64,000 nucleotides of DNA from an uncultured bacterium (GTDB lineage Bacteria; Planctomycetota; SZUA-567; JAKLDR01): the NCBI GenBank assembly GCA_965370045.1, contig CBDUSI010000002.1, forward strand, positions 5,207 through 69,206. Reading direction: 5' to 3'. Shown piece after piece: positions 9,436-16,765 of the stretch. The translations under genes were made by a program, and so were the position numbers. The notes beneath the pieces are model-generated. The model saw only the letters and a list, made by a program, of their open reading frames with translations, made no database searches and was not told the origin of the DNA. Numbering within the stretch: the stretch's first letter is position 1; every line of letters begins with the position of its first letter.

Positions 9436-9492
9436 GAAAAACGGCGAAGCGTCGTAAGTCCTTAGCGTTCAGGAGCGCAGCTCTTGCCAGAA
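9436..9492 (+). repeat. Truncated, degenerate third tandem copy of the element, overlapping the lnt stop
   Basis: aagcgtcgtaagtcc...ttcaggagcgcagctcttgccagaa aligns with the 5' part of the element. Confidence 0.5.
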
Positions 9493-11063
9493 TCGCGAGA
9501 CGGGCGCCTCAGGGTGCGGACAATCCCCACAATCGCACCCAGCACGGCCAGGCCGGCGCATATCCACGCGAAGAGGTCGCCGATGGTCATGTATAGCGTC
9601 CGGCGCGCGGGGGGAACGCGCAAGTCCATGCGCACCAAGCCTTTCTGCCACAGGCCGCCGTGCTCGGGAACGGTGATCCGACCGCCGGAGTCTATCCACG
9701 CGGAGACGCCGGTGTTGGTGGCCCGTACCAGCGGCCGGCGTGTCTCCACCGCGCGGAAGGCGGCCAGGGCCAGGTGCTGATGGGCCTGGGAGCTCTGCCT
9801 GAACCATGAGTCGTTGGTCAGGTTGACCAGCAGGCGCGCTCCGCGCCTGGCGTCGCTGCGGGTAATATATGGAAAGGCGTCCTCGTAGCAGATGTTGACC
9901 CCCAGCGGCGCGCCGGCCATCCGGGGCAGCGGCTGCTCCCGTCCGCCCGGAGTGAAGGTGGTGCCTATGAGGTGAAAGATCGCGTCCGCCCCCGGGAAGC
10001 GCCCGCCCAGCGGGACATATTCGCCGAAAGGCACCAGGTGGCGCTTGTCGTAACGGCCGGCCAGCTTGCCGTCGGGAGAGATCAGCACCGCCGAGTTCCA
10101 GTTGCGCCCGGTGCGGTTCCCGGACTCGTTGGTCTCGTGGACCACGCCGCCGGCCAGGAGCCAGCATTGCTTCTCTTTCGCAAGAGAAGCCAGCAGCCCC
10201 TCCGCGCGGTCGAGCAGCTCGCCGGGCACCATGGTCTCCGACCAGACTACGAGGTCCACCTCGCCGGGGGACAACTCGTTCATCAGCCGCTTCTGCTCGC
10301 GGATCTGGTCCTCGGCCGAGACCTTCTTGGGCCCCACCTTGAAGGCCACCAGCGGCTGGACGGCGGCGATTCGCATTCGCAGCGCGTTCGGTTCCCGAAG
10401 CTGGCGGTTGCGGATCAGGCCGTAGGCCGGTCCCGCCCCGAGGACCAGGACGACGACGAGAACTCTGACCGCGAGCCGCCTGGGACTGCGACCCGCCGCC
10501 AGCGCGGCGGCCAGCACGGTCAGAAAAGACACACCGTAGACCCCGGCGAGGTCGGCGGGGCCCATCGCCGCGGGGACTCCCGCCCAGACGGTCCCGGCCA
10601 GCATCCAGGGGAAGCCGGTGAAGAGGTGCGCGCGCCCGAACTCCAGCGCGACCCACAGCGCGGCCAACATGAGGGGCCAGGCGCGGGTCCCCGCCGCGCG
10701 CCTCTGGAGCGCGGCGCCCAGCCCGAAGACCGCTCCGAAGCACGCGAAGTATATAGCCAGTCCCAGGCAACCGGCGAAGCTCACCGTGCTCATCCAGAAG
10801 AGGCCCACCGCGGCGGACAGCGCGAAGCCGGCCGCGCCCAGCACTGTGCTCCTGCGCAGCGAGGCGCCGCGCAGGCTCCAGACGACCAGCGCCAGTCCCA
10901 CCAGCGCCAGCGGAGCGGAGACCGGCCAGAGCCAGGGCCGCAGCGTGAAGTTGAAGGCCGCGCCGTAAAGCAGCGACCCGGATACCAGCGCCACCCAGCG
11001 CTCCCGGGCGCATTGCGGAGGGCGCGGCTTGCTGCGCGATAACCTGTCAGTCTGGTCAGTCAC
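9462..11063 (-). CDS. lnt: Apolipoprotein N-acyltransferase
   Basis: Multi-TM N-terminus with LFTGFPW; nitrilase triad WSET, YDKRHLVPFGEY, ICYED; NDSWF and RATNTGVS. Confidence 0.95.
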   Translation of the reverse strand: MTDQTDRLSRSKPRPPQCARERWVALVSGSLLYGAAFNFTLRPWLWPVSAPLALVGLALVVWSLRGASLRRSTVLGAAGFALSAAVGLFWMSTVSFAGCLGLAIYFACFGAVFGLGAALQRRAAGTRAWPLMLAALWVALEFGRAHLFTGFPWMLAGTVWAGVPAAMGPADLAGVYGVSFLTVLAAALAAGRSPRRLAVRVLVVVLVLGAGPAYGLIRNRQLREPNALRMRIAAVQPLVAFKVGPKKVSAEDQIREQKRLMNELSPGEVDLVVWSETMVPGELLDRAEGLLASLAKEKQCWLLAGGVVHETNESGNRTGRNWNSAVLISPDGKLAGRYDKRHLVPFGEYVPLGGRFPGADAIFHLIGTTFTPGGREQPLPRMAGAPLGVNICYEDAFPYITRSDARRGARLLVNLTNDSWFRQSSQAHQHLALAAFRAVETRRPLVRATNTGVSAWIDSGGRITVPEHGGLWQKGLVRMDLRVPPARRTLYMTIGDLFAWICAGLAVLGAIVGIVRTLRRPSRDSGKSCAPER

Positions 11064-11080
11064 TGCGGCGGATTATAACC

Positions 11081-13345
11081 CTAACGCTCTCCGGCCGCCA
11101 GCGCGCGGAGGTACTCGTTCACGTAGCGCCGGTACTGGGCAGCCACCGGGGCCCTGCGGCCCAGGGCCTCGCCTATCTCCTCGCGCTTGCCGGGCCCGGG
11201 CCGCAGCGGGCGCAGCGTCCCGTCCGGGGCGCGGACCGCGCGCGGCGCCAGCGAGCTGCCGCGCCCCGGCCCGCCGGCCTCGCGGCCCCAGTCGGTCCGC
11301 AGGGCGGGGGGGGCGTTGGAGGCGAGCTTCTCGCCGGGCCGGGTTTCCATGTTCACCTTCTCGGGGATCACCCGCTCCGGGAGGGGCTCGCCGCTGCCCA
11401 GTTCCCTGCCGGAGGGCGGCTTCTCGGCGGGGTGTCCCGGACCCCTGCCGCTGGGGCCGGGCTTCTTTCCGGGTCGGCTGGTTGACTTTCCGCCGGGGGT
11501 CTTGACCGTGCCGCCGGGGGTCGGCCGGACGCCGGGGCCCTCCGGCTGCTCGGGCGCCTCGCCGCTCTTGCCGTCGCCGGGATTTTCGGGGTTTTCCTTG
11601 CCGGGCTTGCCGGGAGGCTTCTTGCTCCCGGGAGGCTTGCCGGGTCCGGGGGCCTCTTCGCCGGGGGGGGCCATGTACTCGCCCCCGTCCGGGTCGGAGG
11701 GCTTGCCGGAGTCCGGCGGGGACTTGGACGGGGGTTGCTTCTCTCCGAGGTCCGGCTTGTATAGGCTTTCCATCGGGCGGGTGGTCTTCCCGACCTTCTC
11801 GCCGCCATCGCCGGAGCGAGTCGGCGGAGGGGCGGACAGGCGTTGAGGCGGGCGCTTCTCGAGCAGAGGCCCGGCGGCGGAGGCCAGCCGCCGGGGCGGA
11901 CGATAGGCGCCCTCCTCGCTGGCGCCGCGGTTGGGCTTCGGCTGGTGGGTGTCGAAAGCCTCCAGGCGGTAGCGGAAGCCCTCCGCGCTGCCGGCGACCA
12001 GCACTTCGCGGGGGACCAGCACTGCGCCCTGGGACTCGCGCCGGCCGGAGACCTCGGGGACGGCGAAGGCCATGCTCCTGCCCCCGGCCCGGAAGACCAT
12101 GCGCGCCTCTCCCAGCCGGTAGTCGTCGGCCACGCGGTAGTCGACCGCCAGCCGCCCGTCGGCGAGTTCGCGGACCGCCGCGGCCGCCGCCGGGGCCAGG
12201 TCCTTCCGGGCGGTGATCGTCCCGCGGGCCACCTCGCGCGCGGCTCCGCCGCCCGCCGGGCGCACCAGCACCGAGTAGCGGCCCACGCTCCGGACGGTGA
12301 AGGCCACCCGCCAGTCGCCCGGGCGCGTCCGCCGGGCGGAGAGCATCTTCCGGCCGGGCTCGAGGCGGACCTCCACGAACTCGACCGCGCCCCTGGACTT
12401 AACGTGAAGCTCGACGCGGGTGCCCTGCAGGCAGTCGATCTCGGCGGAGGAAACCGTCCGCGGCCCCAGCCCGGTGTATTTCGGGTAGCGGTAAGTCACT
12501 TTCGCCACCGCGGCGTCCGGACGCGGCCGGACCCTCACGCGGAAGGTCCGCGAGGGGTAGACTCCCCCGCGCGCGCCGGCCTCCACCCGGTAGCTGGCGC
12601 CCGTGGGGGCCGCTTCGGTCCGCCACAGCCCGCCGGCCGAGCGGCGCATCTCGGTCGTCGCGCCGGCCTTGAAAACCAGCCGTACCCAGTCCGGCTCACG
12701 CCCGGCCATGCGGCAGGAGGCGGAGAGCGGCTCGCCCTCCTCCAGATCGGCGTCGCCGGGCAGCACCTTCACGATGCGGGTGGGCCCGGTTCCGCCCAGG
12801 CCGGAGACTTGGCCGAGGGCATCGAGGTAACGCGCGCCGCCGGCGGCCAGAAGCGCCAGGCCCAGGCCGAGGGCCAGGAGCACCGAGGCCGGTCCTCGCC
12901 GGGAGCGCCGCTCGCCGCGCGCGACCTCGCCGGCGGTGAGCCCGGCCACGGCCGCGTCGGCGCGCTCGGCGGCCAGCCCGGCCACGCCGGGGTCGAGCCC
13001 GGGGCTGTTCTCCGCCAGCAGGATGAGCGAGCCGGCCAGCTGTGGCCGGGCCCGCTCGGCCAGCGCCGCCAGGTAACGCCGGCCCGGCCGGCGGGCCAGG
13101 GGCAGGAGCGCGGCAGCGACCGCCAGCGCCCCGGCGACCGGGAGCGTCTTGGAAACGAACTCGGCGAAGGGCAGGAGCGTCGGCGGCGCGAAGGCCAGGG
13201 CCGCGGCGGCCAGCTCGGCGCAGGCCAGGAACGCGGCCAGGGACAGCAGTGTCGAGGTGATCAGCGCGCGCAGCAGGAGGCGCACCTCCAGCGCGCGGAG
13301 CAACCGGAGCGCGGACGGCCCCAGGAGCGGGCGGCGGCTCTTCAT
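11081..13345 (-). CDS. Membrane-anchored DUF4175-like protein (TM helices, Ig-like domains, Pro/Gly-rich tail)
   Basis: N-terminal TMs; V.Y.YP.YTGL and V.DDY.L motifs; C-terminal P..YRRYVNEYLRAL. Confidence 0.6.
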   Translation of the reverse strand: MKSRRPLLGPSALRLLRALEVRLLLRALITSTLLSLAAFLACAELAAAALAFAPPTLLPFAEFVSKTLPVAGALAVAAALLPLARRPGRRYLAALAERARPQLAGSLILLAENSPGLDPGVAGLAAERADAAVAGLTAGEVARGERRSRRGPASVLLALGLGLALLAAGGARYLDALGQVSGLGGTGPTRIVKVLPGDADLEEGEPLSASCRMAGREPDWVRLVFKAGATTEMRRSAGGLWRTEAAPTGASYRVEAGARGGVYPSRTFRVRVRPRPDAAVAKVTYRYPKYTGLGPRTVSSAEIDCLQGTRVELHVKSRGAVEFVEVRLEPGRKMLSARRTRPGDWRVAFTVRSVGRYSVLVRPAGGGAAREVARGTITARKDLAPAAAAAVRELADGRLAVDYRVADDYRLGEARMVFRAGGRSMAFAVPEVSGRRESQGAVLVPREVLVAGSAEGFRYRLEAFDTHQPKPNRGASEEGAYRPPRRLASAAGPLLEKRPPQRLSAPPPTRSGDGGEKVGKTTRPMESLYKPDLGEKQPPSKSPPDSGKPSDPDGGEYMAPPGEEAPGPGKPPGSKKPPGKPGKENPENPGDGKSGEAPEQPEGPGVRPTPGGTVKTPGGKSTSRPGKKPGPSGRGPGHPAEKPPSGRELGSGEPLPERVIPEKVNMETRPGEKLASNAPPALRTDWGREAGGPGRGSSLAPRAVRAPDGTLRPLRPGPGKREEIGEALGRRAPVAAQYRRYVNEYLRALAAGER

Positions 13346-13381
13346 CACGGGGTCATCCCCCGCACCCTCGACGGGCCGGCG

Positions 13382-13897
13382 TCAGCGCCCGGCGGCGACG
13401 ACGGCCTCGCGCTCGGCGCTGCGGTCCACCAGGAAGTGCGGTTTGCCCAGAGTGCTGGCCTTTGGCGCCTCTTCGAGGGTCAGGCCCTTGGCCTCCAGCT
13501 GGGCGCGGATCACCTCGAAGGCCAGACCGGCAGGGACGCGCCCCACCCGGGCCGTGATCCGGAGGTCCTGCTTATGGATGTAGTTTCTGGCCTGCTGGGT
13601 GAGGGTCAGCCTGCAGCCCAGCCTGCTGCTCATCCGGGCGAGGACATGGTGCACGGGGGTCTTGTGGAAATCGAGGTTGATGAACCCCTGCTCTGGGAGG
13701 GTGCTCCGGGGCCGGCTGCGGGCCGTGTCCCTCCAGGTGGGCGCCGCCAGCTTCCTGTAATCGTCCTCTGCCTCCCAGGCCGTGTCCGCCCGGCCGGTGC
13801 CGCGCGCCTGGAAACCGACATCGGATTTATCCGCGTAGCATCCGGCGGACAGCAGGATCAGCGCCGCGCCGAGGGGAAGAAGGCTCTTCAGCTTCAT
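13382..13897 (-). CDS. Lipoprotein with a secretin/TonB short N-terminal (STN)-like domain
   Basis: Lipobox SAG|C; INLDFHKTPVHHVLARMSSRLG resembles STN domains. Confidence 0.6.
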   Translation of the reverse strand: MKLKSLLPLGAALILLSAGCYADKSDVGFQARGTGRADTAWEAEDDYRKLAAPTWRDTARSRPRSTLPEQGFINLDFHKTPVHHVLARMSSRLGCRLTLTQQARNYIHKQDLRITARVGRVPAGLAFEVIRAQLEAKGLTLEEAPKASTLGKPHFLVDRSAEREAVVAAGR

Positions 13898-13966
13898 CGT
13901 GCCACCTCCTGCCGGAATGTCCGTGTTCGAAGGAGGGCCGCTTCCGGCGGGAGTGGACGGCCGCTC

Positions 13967-15148
13967 CTACTTGGTCGATTTGTCCTCGCAACGCATCGCG
14001 TCCGCGACGTCCTGCTTGGTGGCGTCCCACTGCTTCTTCTGGAAGCGGAAGTAGTCGCGGAAGCTCCGGCCCAGCTTGCTGCTGCGGCGCAACTCGGAGC
14101 CGAAGTAGCTCTCCATGTCGCGCTCCAACGCCGAGACCTGCTTGGACTGGAAGCGCGCGTAGGCGCGCATGCCCTCGCGGACCCGGGGGGGGCGCACCAC
14201 CAGCTCGTTGTGCATGTAGGTCTTGGCCTCGCCGGGCAGCTCCTTGGCCAGGGCCTTCTGGTGCCGCACGTAGCCGCGGGTCGATTCGGCCAGTTTGGGC
14301 AGCCGCTCCCTCTCGCTCTTGAGGTAGCGTCCCAGATCGTCGGGCAGCTCGGCGGCGAGCTTCTGCTGGTGGCGGTAGTACTCGCGGACGTCCTCGCGGA
14401 GCTTGCCGGTCAGTGCCCAGTTGCTCTTCCAGAAGACCTTCATGTCCGCGGCGAGCTGCGGGGGCAGCTCCCGGAGCTGGTAGCGCATGTAAGTCCCGGC
14501 GTCCTCGCGGAGCTTGGGCGGGCGCTCGACCACCTCGCTGCGGAAGTAGCGGCGCACGTCCTCCTTGGCGGCCCGGGCCAGCTTGACCTGATGGCGGAAG
14601 TACTGGCGGACGCCGACGCGCAGCTTCTTGACCTGGGCCAGGTTGCTCTTGAAGTAGGACTCGATGTCGGCTTCGAGGTCCTTGATGCGCGCCTGCTGGT
14701 AGCGCATGTAAGCCTTGAAGTTCTCGGCCAGTTTGGGGTAGCGCTTTTTCTCGGCGGCCAGGTAGCTCTTGACGTCCTTGGCCATGAGGTCCAGGAGCCT
14801 GCGCTGGTGACGCAGGTATTCCTTGACGTCCCCGCGCAGGGCCGCGGTCAATTTCAGGTTGTACTTGAAGTACTGGTCGATGTCCTTGGGCAGCTCCTTG
14901 CCCAGCTCCTTTTGATGGCGGAAGTAAGCGACCAGGTTTGTCTGCATCCGGACCATGATGCTCAGGTTGTAGCCCATATAGCGCTCGACGTCGTCGGTCA
15001 GCTGGCCGGCCAGGTCCTGCTGGTGGCGGACGTAGTCGCGGACGTCTTCGCGGACCAGCGGCGCGCGCTTGCAGACTTCGCGGCAGCCGCTGAGAGCCAT
15101 TGCCGCCGCGGCGAGGAGCGGAGCCACCACACAGAGGCGCAGACGCAT
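13967..15148 (-). CDS. Lipoprotein made of about 20 tandem 18-residue amphipathic helical repeats
   Basis: Lipobox LSG|C; repeat consensus L.ED[VI]..Y.R[HY]Q alternating with Y..S[NE]; GGAGG RBS. Confidence 0.85.
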   Translation of the reverse strand: MRLRLCVVAPLLAAAAMALSGCREVCKRAPLVREDVRDYVRHQQDLAGQLTDDVERYMGYNLSIMVRMQTNLVAYFRHQKELGKELPKDIDQYFKYNLKLTAALRGDVKEYLRHQRRLLDLMAKDVKSYLAAEKKRYPKLAENFKAYMRYQQARIKDLEADIESYFKSNLAQVKKLRVGVRQYFRHQVKLARAAKEDVRRYFRSEVVERPPKLREDAGTYMRYQLRELPPQLAADMKVFWKSNWALTGKLREDVREYYRHQQKLAAELPDDLGRYLKSERERLPKLAESTRGYVRHQKALAKELPGEAKTYMHNELVVRPPRVREGMRAYARFQSKQVSALERDMESYFGSELRRSSKLGRSFRDYFRFQKKQWDATKQDVADAMRCEDKSTK

Positions 15149-15241
15149 CTAACCCTCCCGGCCCCGCGGACGGGGCCACCGTAATATTGGACGTGTCGGC
15201 AGGGCCCTTATCAGCCCGAAAAGCCGGCCTTTTCAGAGGGG

Positions 15242-15271
15242 ATTCTAAGGCCTGCGGGGGGCGGTTGTCAA
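15242..15271 (-). promoter_or_regulatory. Putative sigma70 promoter for the repeat lipoprotein gene
   Basis: Minus strand TTGACA-N18-TAGAAT. Confidence 0.6.
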
Positions 15272-16017
15272 GGCTCGACAGGGGGCGGGGCAAGTCCCAG
15301 CTCTCGCCTTTGCCCGGCGGTCAGCTTCTGGGGTCCGTTGGGCCGGGCCCGTCCCTCGTAGATGGCGCGCACGACCCGCTTGACCTTCTCGGTGAAGGGC
15401 GCCGCGGCGTGGAAACGCCCCGGGACACTGTAGTTAGCAGCGCCGTCCAGAATCGCCGAGCAGGACGGCCGGACCGTCCAGTCCTGCTCCAGTCGGATGG
15501 AGTGATAGTCGGCGCGGGCCCGCGGCGAGGCGCGGAGCTTCCTCAGCACCTCCGAGCCGGGCTGCATGTCCCGCACCGAGGCCGAGCGCATCTTACGGCC
15601 CTTGGTGGTGCCGTTGTGCGGGGTGCACACGGTCACGATGCGCCGGACGCGCCCGCGCATCTGCTCGGCGTACCAGCGGCAGACCAGCCCGCCCAGGCTG
15701 TAGCCCACCAGGTCCACCCGCTGGCCGGGCTTGAGCTTCAGGCCCGCCACGAAGGCGGCCAGTTCCCGGGCGTACTCCGGGACGCGCTTGTTGGTGCCCA
15801 AGCCCGAGAGCCGGCAGACGTGCACCTCGGCGTCGACTGAGTCGCGCAGCTCCTCAGCGATCGGCTTCACCCACCACTTGACGTTGCCCCAGCCGGGGAC
15901 CAGCACGACCACGCGGGTGCCGGGAATGCGCTCGGCGGGCGGGCGCGGCCGGGAGGCCTTGCACCCCCCCGCAGCCAGCGTCAGGAAGAGGAGGGCGGCG
16001 GTGGCTTTACGGAGCAT
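15268..16017 (-). CDS. Lipoprotein alpha/beta hydrolase (small lipase/esterase)
   Basis: AGG|C lipobox; LVPGW oxyanion loop; GYSLGG nucleophile elbow; TPHNGT; later Asp and His candidates. Confidence 0.85.
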   Translation of the reverse strand: MLRKATAALLFLTLAAGGCKASRPRPPAERIPGTRVVVLVPGWGNVKWWVKPIAEELRDSVDAEVHVCRLSGLGTNKRVPEYARELAAFVAGLKLKPGQRVDLVGYSLGGLVCRWYAEQMRGRVRRIVTVCTPHNGTTKGRKMRSASVRDMQPGSEVLRKLRASPRARADYHSIRLEQDWTVRPSCSAILDGAANYSVPGRFHAAAPFTEKVKRVVRAIYEGRARPNGPQKLTAGQRRELGLAPPPVEP

Positions 16018-16765
16018 TACTGCGCTCCGGCGGCAGGCGCAGCTCCGCCTTCTGCCGGGAGGTGAGCTTCTGGGGGCCGCCGGGTCTGGCCCGCCCCGTG
16101 AAGATGGCCACTATCGTCTTTCGCACGTCCCCCCGGTAGGGCCCCATCAGATGGGCCTTGCCGGGGAGTTGGTAGTTGCTGGCCCCCTCCAAGATGGGCG
16201 AGAAAGAGGGCCTGATCGTGGTGTCCTTGGCCAGCCTGATGGAGTGGTACGCCACGTCGGCCCGCCGCGAGGCGCAGAGCTTCTTCATGGCCCCGGAGCC
16301 CGGCTGCATGTCCTGCACGGAGGGAAGCTTGAGCCTGGCGGCCTTGGTGGTGCCGTGATGCGGGGTGCAGATGGTGACGATGCGCCCCGCGCGCCCGCCC
16401 AGTTGCTCAACGTACCAGCGGCAGACCAGCCCGCCGAAGCTGAAGCCCACCAGGTCCAGCCTGTCTTCAGGCTTGAGCCCCAGCCTCTTCACGTAGTCGG
16501 CCAGCTCCTGGCCGTAGGTGGGAAGGCCCTTGGTGATGCCCAGGCCGGTGAGCTCGATGCGGTGCGTCTCGACGTCGATGTACTTGTGAAGGGTCTCGGC
16601 GATGGGCTTCATCTGCTCGGCGCCGCTGGCCCAGCCGGGGACCAGCACCACCACATGGCGCGGCGCGCCGGGCTGGCGCACCTTTCTGCGGCGCCCGGGG
16701 AACCGGCAGCCGGTCGCGATCAGGGCCACGAGCAGAGCGAGGGCAGCGGTCACTCTCGGAGACAT
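16007..16765 (-). CDS. Lipoprotein alpha/beta hydrolase (paralogue of the neighbouring gene)
   Basis: ATG|C lipobox; LVPGW, GFSFGG and TPHHGT motifs. Confidence 0.85.
   Translation of the reverse strand: MSPRVTAALALLVALIATGCRFPGRRRKVRQPGAPRHVVVLVPGWASGAEQMKPIAETLHKYIDVETHRIELTGLGITKGLPTYGQELADYVKRLGLKPEDRLDLVGFSFGGLVCRWYVEQLGGRAGRIVTICTPHHGTTKAARLKLPSVQDMQPGSGAMKKLCASRRADVAYHSIRLAKDTTIRPSFSPILEGASNYQLPGKAHLMGPYRGDVRKTIVAIFTGRARPGGPQKLTSRQKAELRLPPERSNAP

Follow-up and report, generated by a model that had tools for sequence, protein, structure and literature searches.

A predicted lipoprotein with twenty helical units of 18 residues, the founding member of a new family found in a few lineages of Planctomycetota

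The stretch of DNA analysed here, hereafter the window, comprises 64,000 nucleotides (nt) of contig CBDUSI010000002.1 (positions 5,207 to 69,206 of the forward strand; assembly GCA_965370045.1) from an uncultured bacterium of the phylum Planctomycetota. It contains an open reading frame (ORF) of 393 amino acids (aa), at positions 13967..15148 of the minus strand, that encodes a predicted lipoprotein composed, past its lipid anchor, of twenty 18-residue helical units; we refer to its product as the repeat protein. Sequence comparisons indicate that it is the first described member of a new family, encoded by a single-copy gene and restricted to a few lineages of Planctomycetota, in which cysteines at the two ends of the mature chain tend to be present or absent together. 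Our working model, plausible if somewhat short of probable, is that of a lipid-anchored helical loop of fixed length, lying on the membrane surface with its ends joined and serving as a scaffold of the cell envelope. All features given below lie on the minus strand, and positions are those of the window.

Architecture of the repeat protein

The ORF begins with a lipoprotein signal peptide, MRLRLCVVAPLLAAAAMALSGC (residues 1–22, positions 15083..15148), which ends in the lipobox L-S-G-C22 and fits the [LVI][ASTVI][GAS]C pattern of Lgt/LspA substrates. Nearly all homologues keep such a signal peptide and its [GAS]-C lipobox. Judged by these two elements the repeat protein is a bacterial lipoprotein, with a predicted lipidation at Cys22.

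Autocorrelation of the mature chain (BLOSUM62, 300 shuffles) gave peaks at lags 18 (z 12.6) and 36 (z 12.5), with weaker peaks at lags 54, 72, 90 and 108–110. When the units are set out by anchoring on their aromatic residue, the mature chain resolves into 20 units of 18 residues, three of which have 19 (residues 192–210, 211–229 and 302–320), and the array spans residues 30–393 (positions 13970..15061). Position 10 of the unit is a Tyr in 18 of the 20 units, a Phe in one and an Ala in one. Two types of units alternate: the odd or A units, typically Y.RHQ, display the motif Y.R[HYF]Q in ten cases out of ten, and the even or B units (Y..x[N/E]) the motif Y..[SYNA][NE] in eight out of ten, the exceptions reading FWKSN and AMRCE. 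Each of the twelve prolines of the mature chain is the last, the first or the fourth residue of its unit, and proline columns recur at unit ends across the family, at residues 229 (92%), 119 and 356 (67%), 320 (58%), 137 (50%), and 83 and 265 (42%). The layout proposed by the initial annotation, namely a lipoprotein of twenty 18-residue units (three of 19) with a near-invariant Tyr at position 10, two strictly alternating unit motifs and prolines gathered at unit junctions, is therefore borne out by the lipobox, the autocorrelation and the unit-by-unit inspection, the two deviating B units excepted.

Tandem Repeats Finder detected no 54- or 108-nt DNA array in the repeat gene, and between species orthologous units are more alike than units of the same type located elsewhere in the chain (0.75 versus 0.34, 0.49 versus 0.32 and 0.30 versus 0.22). 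Taken together, these two observations rule out a recent amplification of the repeats at the DNA level. As far as these alignments tell, the repeats are ancient and can be aligned unit by unit between species. Note that one genome of family f4 contains a strongly homogenised variant of the family (L057/L028, G016:C63), a 421-aa ORF with near-identical 36-residue copies …NAAENITLLNDDARKWAQDQPKRADK…; this variant, the only member seen to hint at a recent turnover of repeats, was excluded from the cysteine count and from the tree described below.

A tally made on 24 full-length members of the window's type gives the residues found at each unit position: L, V or T at position 3; I, V or L at position 7; Y at position 10 of the A units (92%) and Y, W or F at that of the B units (89%); an aromatic or aliphatic residue at position 11; Q at position 14 of the A units (81%) and Q, E or N at that of the B units (86%); and L, P or V at positions 17/18. 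When projected on a helical wheel of 100 degrees per residue, the conserved apolar positions all fall within 160–280 degrees, hence on a stripe of about 120 degrees, with the Q, E or N of position 14 at 220 degrees, i.e. at the centre of the stripe. Position 6, at the 140-degree edge of the stripe, is an Asp in 46–50% of the units and D, N or S in about 70%, and Arg or Lys predominate at position 4, on the opposite edge. The hydrophobicity spectrum of the repeat protein peaks at 99 degrees, which corresponds to 3.64 residues per turn, with a power of 20.7 as compared to a shuffle maximum of 7.7 ± 1.7, and a peak at 98.5–101 degrees is found in 51 of 54 family members. Since a unit of 18 residues equals five helical turns, the conserved positions L3, I/V7, Y10, aromatic 11, Q/E14 and L17/18 form one straight and narrow stripe, as the initial annotation had anticipated from the repeat length; the spectral peak agrees with this proposal. 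As predicted from the sequence, the stripe runs along about 365 residues, i.e. about 55 nm if the chain is fully extended. The core positions 3, 7, 10, 14 and 17/18 follow a 4-3-4-4-3 spacing, with about 5 core residues per 18 positions, which is the pattern of an 18-residue (heptad + hendecad) coiled coil. With its twenty five-turn units, whose register has long been kept between species, the protein is unusually regular and provides a clean natural example of the 3.6-residue periodicity.

The repeat protein belongs to a new family

The repeat gene is present in a single copy in its own genome. Its homologues display 76% identity in the same genus, 50% in the sister genus and about 22–30%, at nearly equal length, in other families of the class. 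Profile matches at E ≤ 1e-5 were found in 26 of 62 genomes of the class, distributed by genome family as follows: f1, which is the window's own family, 3/3; f4, 16/17; f5, 2/2; f3, 1/1; f7, 2/5, these being short partial matches; and f2, 1/32. When the phylum was sampled evenly (401 genomes), profile A2 matched 37 genomes and profile A3 matched 34, nearly all of them in the aforementioned families (f1–f5 and f7) and in f19, a family of another class (21–22 of 23 genomes). With phmmer, 1.84 billion representative proteins were searched exhaustively, and 31 matched at E ≤ 1e-3, 8 at E ≤ 1e-10 and 1 at E ≤ 1e-30; the match P0030, a 1062-residue repeat protein that is apparently unrelated, was left out. 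A word-index search returned no homologue with the repeat protein and, with profile A1, a single one that was known beforehand; as the repeats flood this index, the outcome has no bearing on novelty.

The family comprises two main subfamilies: the window's type, with Y.RHQ units, and the f19 type, which is rich in Trp and Phe (e.g. RFLEWRKREWW) and carries one additional 18-residue unit. Profile–profile alignment with hhalign establishes their homology (probability 99.85, E 9e-31, 341 columns). The mature length is nearly constant within each subfamily: among 54 members, it is 363–377 residues in 29 and 390–403 in 23 of the other 25.

The initial annotation had left room for a new solenoid or membrane scaffold, and a characterised repeat family was looked for in Pfam, in NCBIfam, with a PDB sequence profile and with Foldseek, none yielding a match above noise. 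More specifically, a Pfam scan of the repeat protein at E ≤ 10 listed 14 families, none of which reached its cut-off and none of which is an apolipoprotein model, and the NCBIfam scan gave only scattered matches under threshold, such as TIGR04540 (CLB_0814 family), which scored 25.9 bits for a cut-off of 50 and covered only residues 74–114. No Pfam family matched the 25 f19-type members at E ≤ 1e-3, and none matched more than 3 of the 34 members of the window's type. Full-text literature searches found no description of such a protein. Because no Pfam, NCBIfam or PDB family matches, we treat the repeat protein as the founding member of a new family.

Cysteines at the two ends of the chain co-occur

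The whole repeat protein contains only four Cys residues, at positions 6 (in the signal peptide), 22 (in the lipobox), 26 and 387. Besides the lipidated residue, the mature chain thus has a single Cys at each end, as initially noted: Cys26 (positions 15071..15073), four residues past the lipidated Cys, and Cys387 (positions 13988..13990), in the C-terminal motif MRCE. To classify the homologues, a second Cys within 21 residues past the lipidated one was counted as N-terminal, and a Cys in the last 60 residues as C-terminal. Of 54 distinct full-length members, 19 carry both Cys and 33 lack both; in 2 the C-terminal Cys stands alone, and there is no member with just the N-terminal one. In one of the two exceptions, L019, the Cys lies within a repeat, 50 residues before the end; the other, L073, is the most divergent member. 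In addition, the two extra N-terminal Cys of L059 (GCCC), the one member to have two, are matched by two Cys close to its C-terminus.

On a tree built from the protein core, the Cys-bearing ends being removed, the state of the N-terminal Cys changes at least seven times. The well-supported branches provide three independent contrasts, all three in the same direction. Since gains and losses of the Cys near the lipid anchor coincide with those of the Cys near the C-terminus, the chain ends are probably joined, by a disulfide in this lineage; a bond between the two ends, probably Cys26–Cys387 in the repeat protein, is the simplest reading of the covariation. If formed, this disulfide would place both ends of the chain at the membrane. 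The coupled gain and loss of the terminal Cys therefore constitutes a concrete, testable hypothesis on the chain arrangement. Note that members devoid of the Cys pair carry other conserved C-terminal motifs, namely E/H-L-P-D/N-G-T in f4 and, in f19, an A-F-G-D…P tail past the Cys position.

Structure prediction

Using an alignment of 34 sequences, AlphaFold2 predicted helices at residues 4–133, 138–227, 230–301 and 307–385, with helix breaks at 134–137 and 228–229 (mean predicted local distance difference test score, pLDDT, 66; predicted template modelling score, pTM, 0.33). The local pLDDT rises to 75–86 over residues 90–190, a segment that spans the unit junctions 101/102, 119/120, 155/156 and 173/174. 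The model gives good support for helices continuing across most unit junctions, and the spatial arrangement of the predicted helices carries no usable information. A model computed from the single sequence (pLDDT 56) was uninformative.

Structural searches returned nothing above noise. The ESM Atlas provided no usable match for the window's protein, and the homologue P0005 gave unrelated rows. Foldseek against the PDB returned no row with E < 1; an apoA-IV row, with an E-value of 4.7, was discarded as noise. VIA-align found single long helices only, its best Z (11.1) lying under the noise bar of about 13 that applies to long helices, and the PDB sequence profile search yielded nothing under E 0.01.

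Expression signals and gene context

A promoter-like site, TTGACA-18 nt-TAGAAT (positions 15271..15242), lies ahead of the repeat gene and overlaps the stop codon of the upstream hydrolase gene. This sigma-70-like site, called by consensus match, displays 11 matches out of 12, and the mean number of such sites was 0.0 in 50 shuffles of the region, so that the near-consensus promoter reported initially holds as a promoter-like site. A Shine-Dalgarno-like sequence, GGGAGGG (positions 15153..15159), is found 4 nt ahead of the ATG. With these two elements, the expression signals of the repeat gene are probably strong. The 5′ leader folds no better than its shuffles (z −0.62), and an Rfam scan of positions 13000–16000 gave no match. 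Among sequencing runs, none from RNA was listed as containing the sequence, and metagenome contigs shared only a small fraction of its words.

The repeat gene is preceded, in the order of the minus strand, by two genes encoding lipoproteins of the alpha/beta hydrolase type and is followed by genes encoding a 171-aa lipoprotein, a 755-aa membrane protein and Lnt. The two hydrolases (positions 16007–16765 and 15268–16017) are paralogous, with 55% identity, and each has a lipobox. They match Abhydrolase_1, Palm_thioest, DUF676 and a PGAP1-like family, the matches to Palm_thioest (palmitoyl-protein thioesterase) and DUF676 being above cut-off. As their genes overlap (11 nt), a single operon is probable. 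The hydrolase genes adjoin the repeat gene only in the closest genus; a functional link with Palm_thioest-like hydrolases was accordingly set aside, as the association is not kept outside that genus.

The 171-aa lipoprotein (positions 13382..13897), whose gene lies between the repeat gene and the DUF4175-like gene, has an LLSAGC lipobox and no family in Pfam or NCBIfam. The 755-aa protein (positions 11081..13348) comprises N-terminal membrane segments, a DUF4175-like middle part and a long low-complexity stretch rich in Pro, Gly and Lys; its match to DUF4175 (PF13779; E 1.3e-5, 23.9 bits) is under the cut-off of 27.3. In each of the three other f1 genomes, both genes likewise lie 3′ of the repeat gene, and tblastn matched the 171-aa lipoprotein directly downstream of the homologue in L002, L003 and L004. 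The DUF4175-like gene, a conserved neighbour in f1 and f5, occupies the same position in G001–G003 and in the f5 genome G040, and BLASTP gives an E-value of 8e-10 with the G040 neighbour. In the f3 genome, a small lipoprotein and a 740-aa protein stand in the matching places, with similarities that were not demonstrated (E 0.21 and 0.74). The run of same-strand genes ends with lnt (positions 9462–11063), which encodes an apolipoprotein N-acyltransferase with CN_hydrolase and LNT_N domains, so that the organism can probably make triacylated lipoproteins.

The neighbours of the repeat gene vary in f4 and f19. In 3 of 12 distant loci (L034, L037 and L041, all in f4), the divergent neighbour is a PilM_2-fusion gene, whose product of 631–658 aa has an N-terminal PilM_2 domain; a link with these genes was set aside given that they adjoin in those three loci only. 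Because of this variability and of the rarity of the PilM_2-fusion arrangement, the gene context gives no function.

Possible arrangements of the chain

Altogether, the lipid anchor, the all-helical chain, the aromatic stripe with its polar centre, the proline kinks, the fixed number of units, the ends that probably meet, the single gene copy and the probably strong expression signals argue for a structural envelope protein and not for an enzyme or a binder of small ligands. In the working model, which we favour tentatively, (i) the chain past Cys22 is helical, with its 20 units, its straight aromatic/aliphatic stripe and its proline-marked junctions; (ii) a Cys26–Cys387 disulfide would join the ends, both at the membrane; (iii) the resulting loop would lie with its stripe against the membrane surface; and (iv) it would act as a scaffold or a fence, i.e. 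as a non-enzymatic structural element of the cell envelope and not as a binder of small ligands. We favour a loop on the membrane surface because the stripe is aromatic and rich in Arg and Trp across the family, because the proline kinks are irregular and because the predictors failed to find self-packing. In particular, the aromatic content, which is 7.6–16.5% across the family, and the W/R-rich motifs of the f19 subfamily, such as the one quoted above, suggest a membrane-interface flavour. A more specific form of this model, which is improbable, is a covalently closed, lipid-anchored helical ring with a contour of about 55 nm set by the repeat number, forming a loop about 17 nm across. Such a ring would corral a defined membrane patch or a membrane complex and would be the bacterial counterpart of an apolipoprotein or nanodisc belt; if this reading were true, the protein would be a natural membrane scaffold of fixed circumference, possibly a useful one.

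Several observations weigh against the membrane-surface loop. The hydrophobic moment of the repeat protein is modest (mean 0.39), for a mean hydrophobicity of −0.29, and such a moment would fit helix–helix packing as well as, or better than, membrane binding. The predicted stripe is narrow, with conserved polar residues at its centre and a conserved Asp at one edge. The net charge is +29 in the window's protein and varies from −24 to +41 across the family, so that electrostatic binding to membranes is no family trait; an electrostatic role for the charge of the window's protein was set aside on the same ground. The AlphaFold2 model shows no confident tertiary packing, and the ESM Atlas model of the homologue P0005 is also of low confidence (pTM 0.32). 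As for the joined ends, the both-or-neither pattern of the terminal Cys in 52 of 54 members agrees with the linkage envisaged at the outset; given the relatedness of the members it is not statistically decisive, a sign test on the three supported pairs giving p 0.25. Besides, no member of the DSBA, Thioredoxin_4, VKOR or DsbB families turned up in the window's genome (88% complete), so that no enzyme was identified to form the proposed disulfide, and two intermolecular staples in a parallel dimer, Cys26–Cys26′ and Cys387–Cys387′, could yield the same covariation.

The stripe could also be buried by the protein itself. In an unlikely but serious alternative, the chain would fold back into a periplasmic rod, either an antiparallel hairpin of about 27 nm or an up-down four-helix bundle of 11–16 nm, that would act as a spacer or a tether; the stripe would be buried between the A-type and B-type faces and the disulfide would staple the open end beside the lipid anchor. 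A narrow stripe with conserved Tyr and Gln/Glu would suit this rod better than a membrane-surface loop, since its 4-3-4-4-3 spacing puts Tyr and Gln/Glu in core-like positions, by analogy with coiled-coil cores containing polar layers. Furthermore, a turn at a unit boundary would set A units opposite B units and would thereby explain their strict alternation. As to the location of the turn, the RPP sequence at residues 209–211 is within 5 residues of the Cys26–Cys387 midpoint, but the best conserved proline, P229, is off the midpoint, and no choice of turn makes the proline pattern mirror-symmetric. The conserved breaks at 137, 229 and 320, together with those of the AlphaFold2 model, would delimit four helices of 6, 5, 5 and 4 units; the Cys covariation sets the termini side by side, but arms of these lengths would leave Cys26 and Cys387 several nanometres apart. 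The absence of confident packing in the AlphaFold2 model also argues against the rod. A role as a tether could find some room in Planctomycetes, where, as a published survey mentions, no known outer-membrane tether was detected (10.1101/2021.05.31.446380); however, with 34–37 of the 401 sampled genomes, the family is too patchy to be a general planctomycete envelope tether. Finally, the acidic flank (Asp6) and the basic flank (Arg/Lys4) of the stripe would favour, by the flank rule of coiled coils, a parallel pairing rather than an antiparallel one. This feature, like the period of 3.6 residues per turn, would suit a parallel homo-oligomeric coiled coil made of untwisted 18-per-5 helices, with several lipid tails, in which positions 6 and 4 would pair favourably and both ends would be stapled between chains. 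The observed covariation might also arise if disulfide-using lineages acquired the two staples at once, but independent staples should occur singly more often than in 2 of 54 members, and the matched extra Cys at both ends of L059 suits an N-to-C pairing better. Moreover, the many junction prolines, including the PP pairs at 210–211, 229–230 and 320–321, are ill-suited to a straight 55-nm rod, and we regard this oligomer as improbable.

Two further arrangements, both mentioned by the initial annotation, appear very improbable. An alpha-solenoid of TPR/Sel1 type, in which each 18-residue unit would be a short helix followed by a turn, and in which ten 36-residue A+B pairs would build a superhelix or a closed toroid with touching ends, would account for a super-repeat equal in size to known helix-turn-helix repeats, for the prolines at unit ends and for the frequency of D, N or S, which are typical helix N-caps, at position 6; as a toroid, it would also join the termini as the Cys covariation does. 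Contrary to this scheme, AlphaFold2 runs the helices through most junctions, with its best local pLDDT (75–86) across the four junctions listed above, albeit at low global confidence; 8 of the 19 junctions lack Pro, most of those lacking Gly as well; and no TPR, Sel1 or HEAT model matches, Foldseek and VIA-align giving single long helices only. We have as little confidence in the leading idea of the initial annotation, a lipid carrier of the apolipoprotein kind, that is, a belt wrapped around the edge of a lipid disc or droplet, closed by an N–C disulfide and solubilising or transporting lipid. Its lipid-related neighbours in the window, the two lipoprotein hydrolases upstream and Lnt downstream, would fit such a role but are not conserved beyond the closest relatives, and a protein that is itself lipid-anchored cannot leave the membrane as a particle unless it is released. 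The proline-punctuated tandem amphipathic helices, the Cys covariation and the low-confidence long-helix predictions, which recall those typical of exchangeable apolipoproteins, may speak for a carrier; the repeat period, which is neither 11 nor 22, the geometry of the stripe (about 120 degrees, Gln/Glu at its centre, Asp at its edge, hence not of class A), the lack of a Pfam apolipoprotein match and the noise-level score of the Foldseek apoA-IV row speak against it.

The envelope of Planctomycetota is atypical and dynamic, and new abundant structural lipoproteins are worth characterising there.

Comparison with known systems

The repeat protein shares with the exchangeable apolipoproteins (apoA-I, apoA-IV and apoE) tandem amphipathic helical repeats, prolines at the junctions and two alternating types of units that make up a super-repeat of double length; all 12 prolines of the mature chain are at junctions, and P229 is 92% conserved in the family. 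Apolipoprotein repeats have a period of 11/22 residues. The period here is 18/36, there is no sequence match and, unlike apolipoproteins, the repeat protein is bacterial, lipid-anchored and confined to some Planctomycetota. The helices themselves also differ. A class A amphipathic helix has a wide apolar face, with basic residues at both polar–apolar boundaries and acidic residues at the centre of the polar face. In the repeat protein, the apolar positions span 160–280 degrees only, with Q, E or N at the centre and Asp at the boundary. Given this narrow stripe, its polar centre, its Asp edge and the unconserved charge (net −24 to +41), the helices are not class A apolipoprotein helices, and the apolipoprotein-type helices of the initial annotation are not retained: whereas its description of the architecture, of the ends as linked and of a promoter-like site is supported, the apolipoprotein analogy is only a loose one, with neither a model match nor a class A pattern.

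Braun's lipoprotein Lpp is a heptad-based trimer of about 58 residues whose C-terminal Lys is linked to peptidoglycan. Like Lpp and other coiled-coil envelope lipoproteins, the repeat protein would combine an N-terminal lipid anchor, an all-helical chain and a regular hydrophobic stripe, to which its probably strong expression signals and a plausible structural role in the envelope may be added. It differs from Lpp by its length of about 370 residues, its 18-residue period, its proline kinks and its terminal Cys pair; there is no sequence match and the C-terminal residues of the family are not conserved as Lys. The phasins (PhaP), which coat a hydrophobic surface, also have long amphipathic helices, and the top VIA-align row is a phasin (5ip0; Z 11.1, root-mean-square deviation 4.3, 107 residues aligned), still under the noise bar of about 13. 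Phasin_2 (PF09361) matches the repeat protein at E 0.0067 with 17 bits, under its cut-off of 24.9, and matches 1 of 34 family members at E ≤ 1e-3. Phasins are cytoplasmic and are not lipoproteins. As for TPR/Sel1-like solenoid repeats, the resemblance lies in the super-repeat, about 36 residues long, whose two helical halves differ from one another; unlike them, the repeat protein matches no such model, and the AlphaFold2 model, of low global confidence, has no turn at each unit junction and so lends no support to the solenoid alternative of the initial annotation. Of these two arguments, the one from sequence carries more weight than the one from the predicted fold. In conclusion, as far as sequence features allow us to judge, the repeat protein is most like proline-punctuated amphipathic repeat proteins or coiled-coil envelope lipoproteins, and is a member of neither group.

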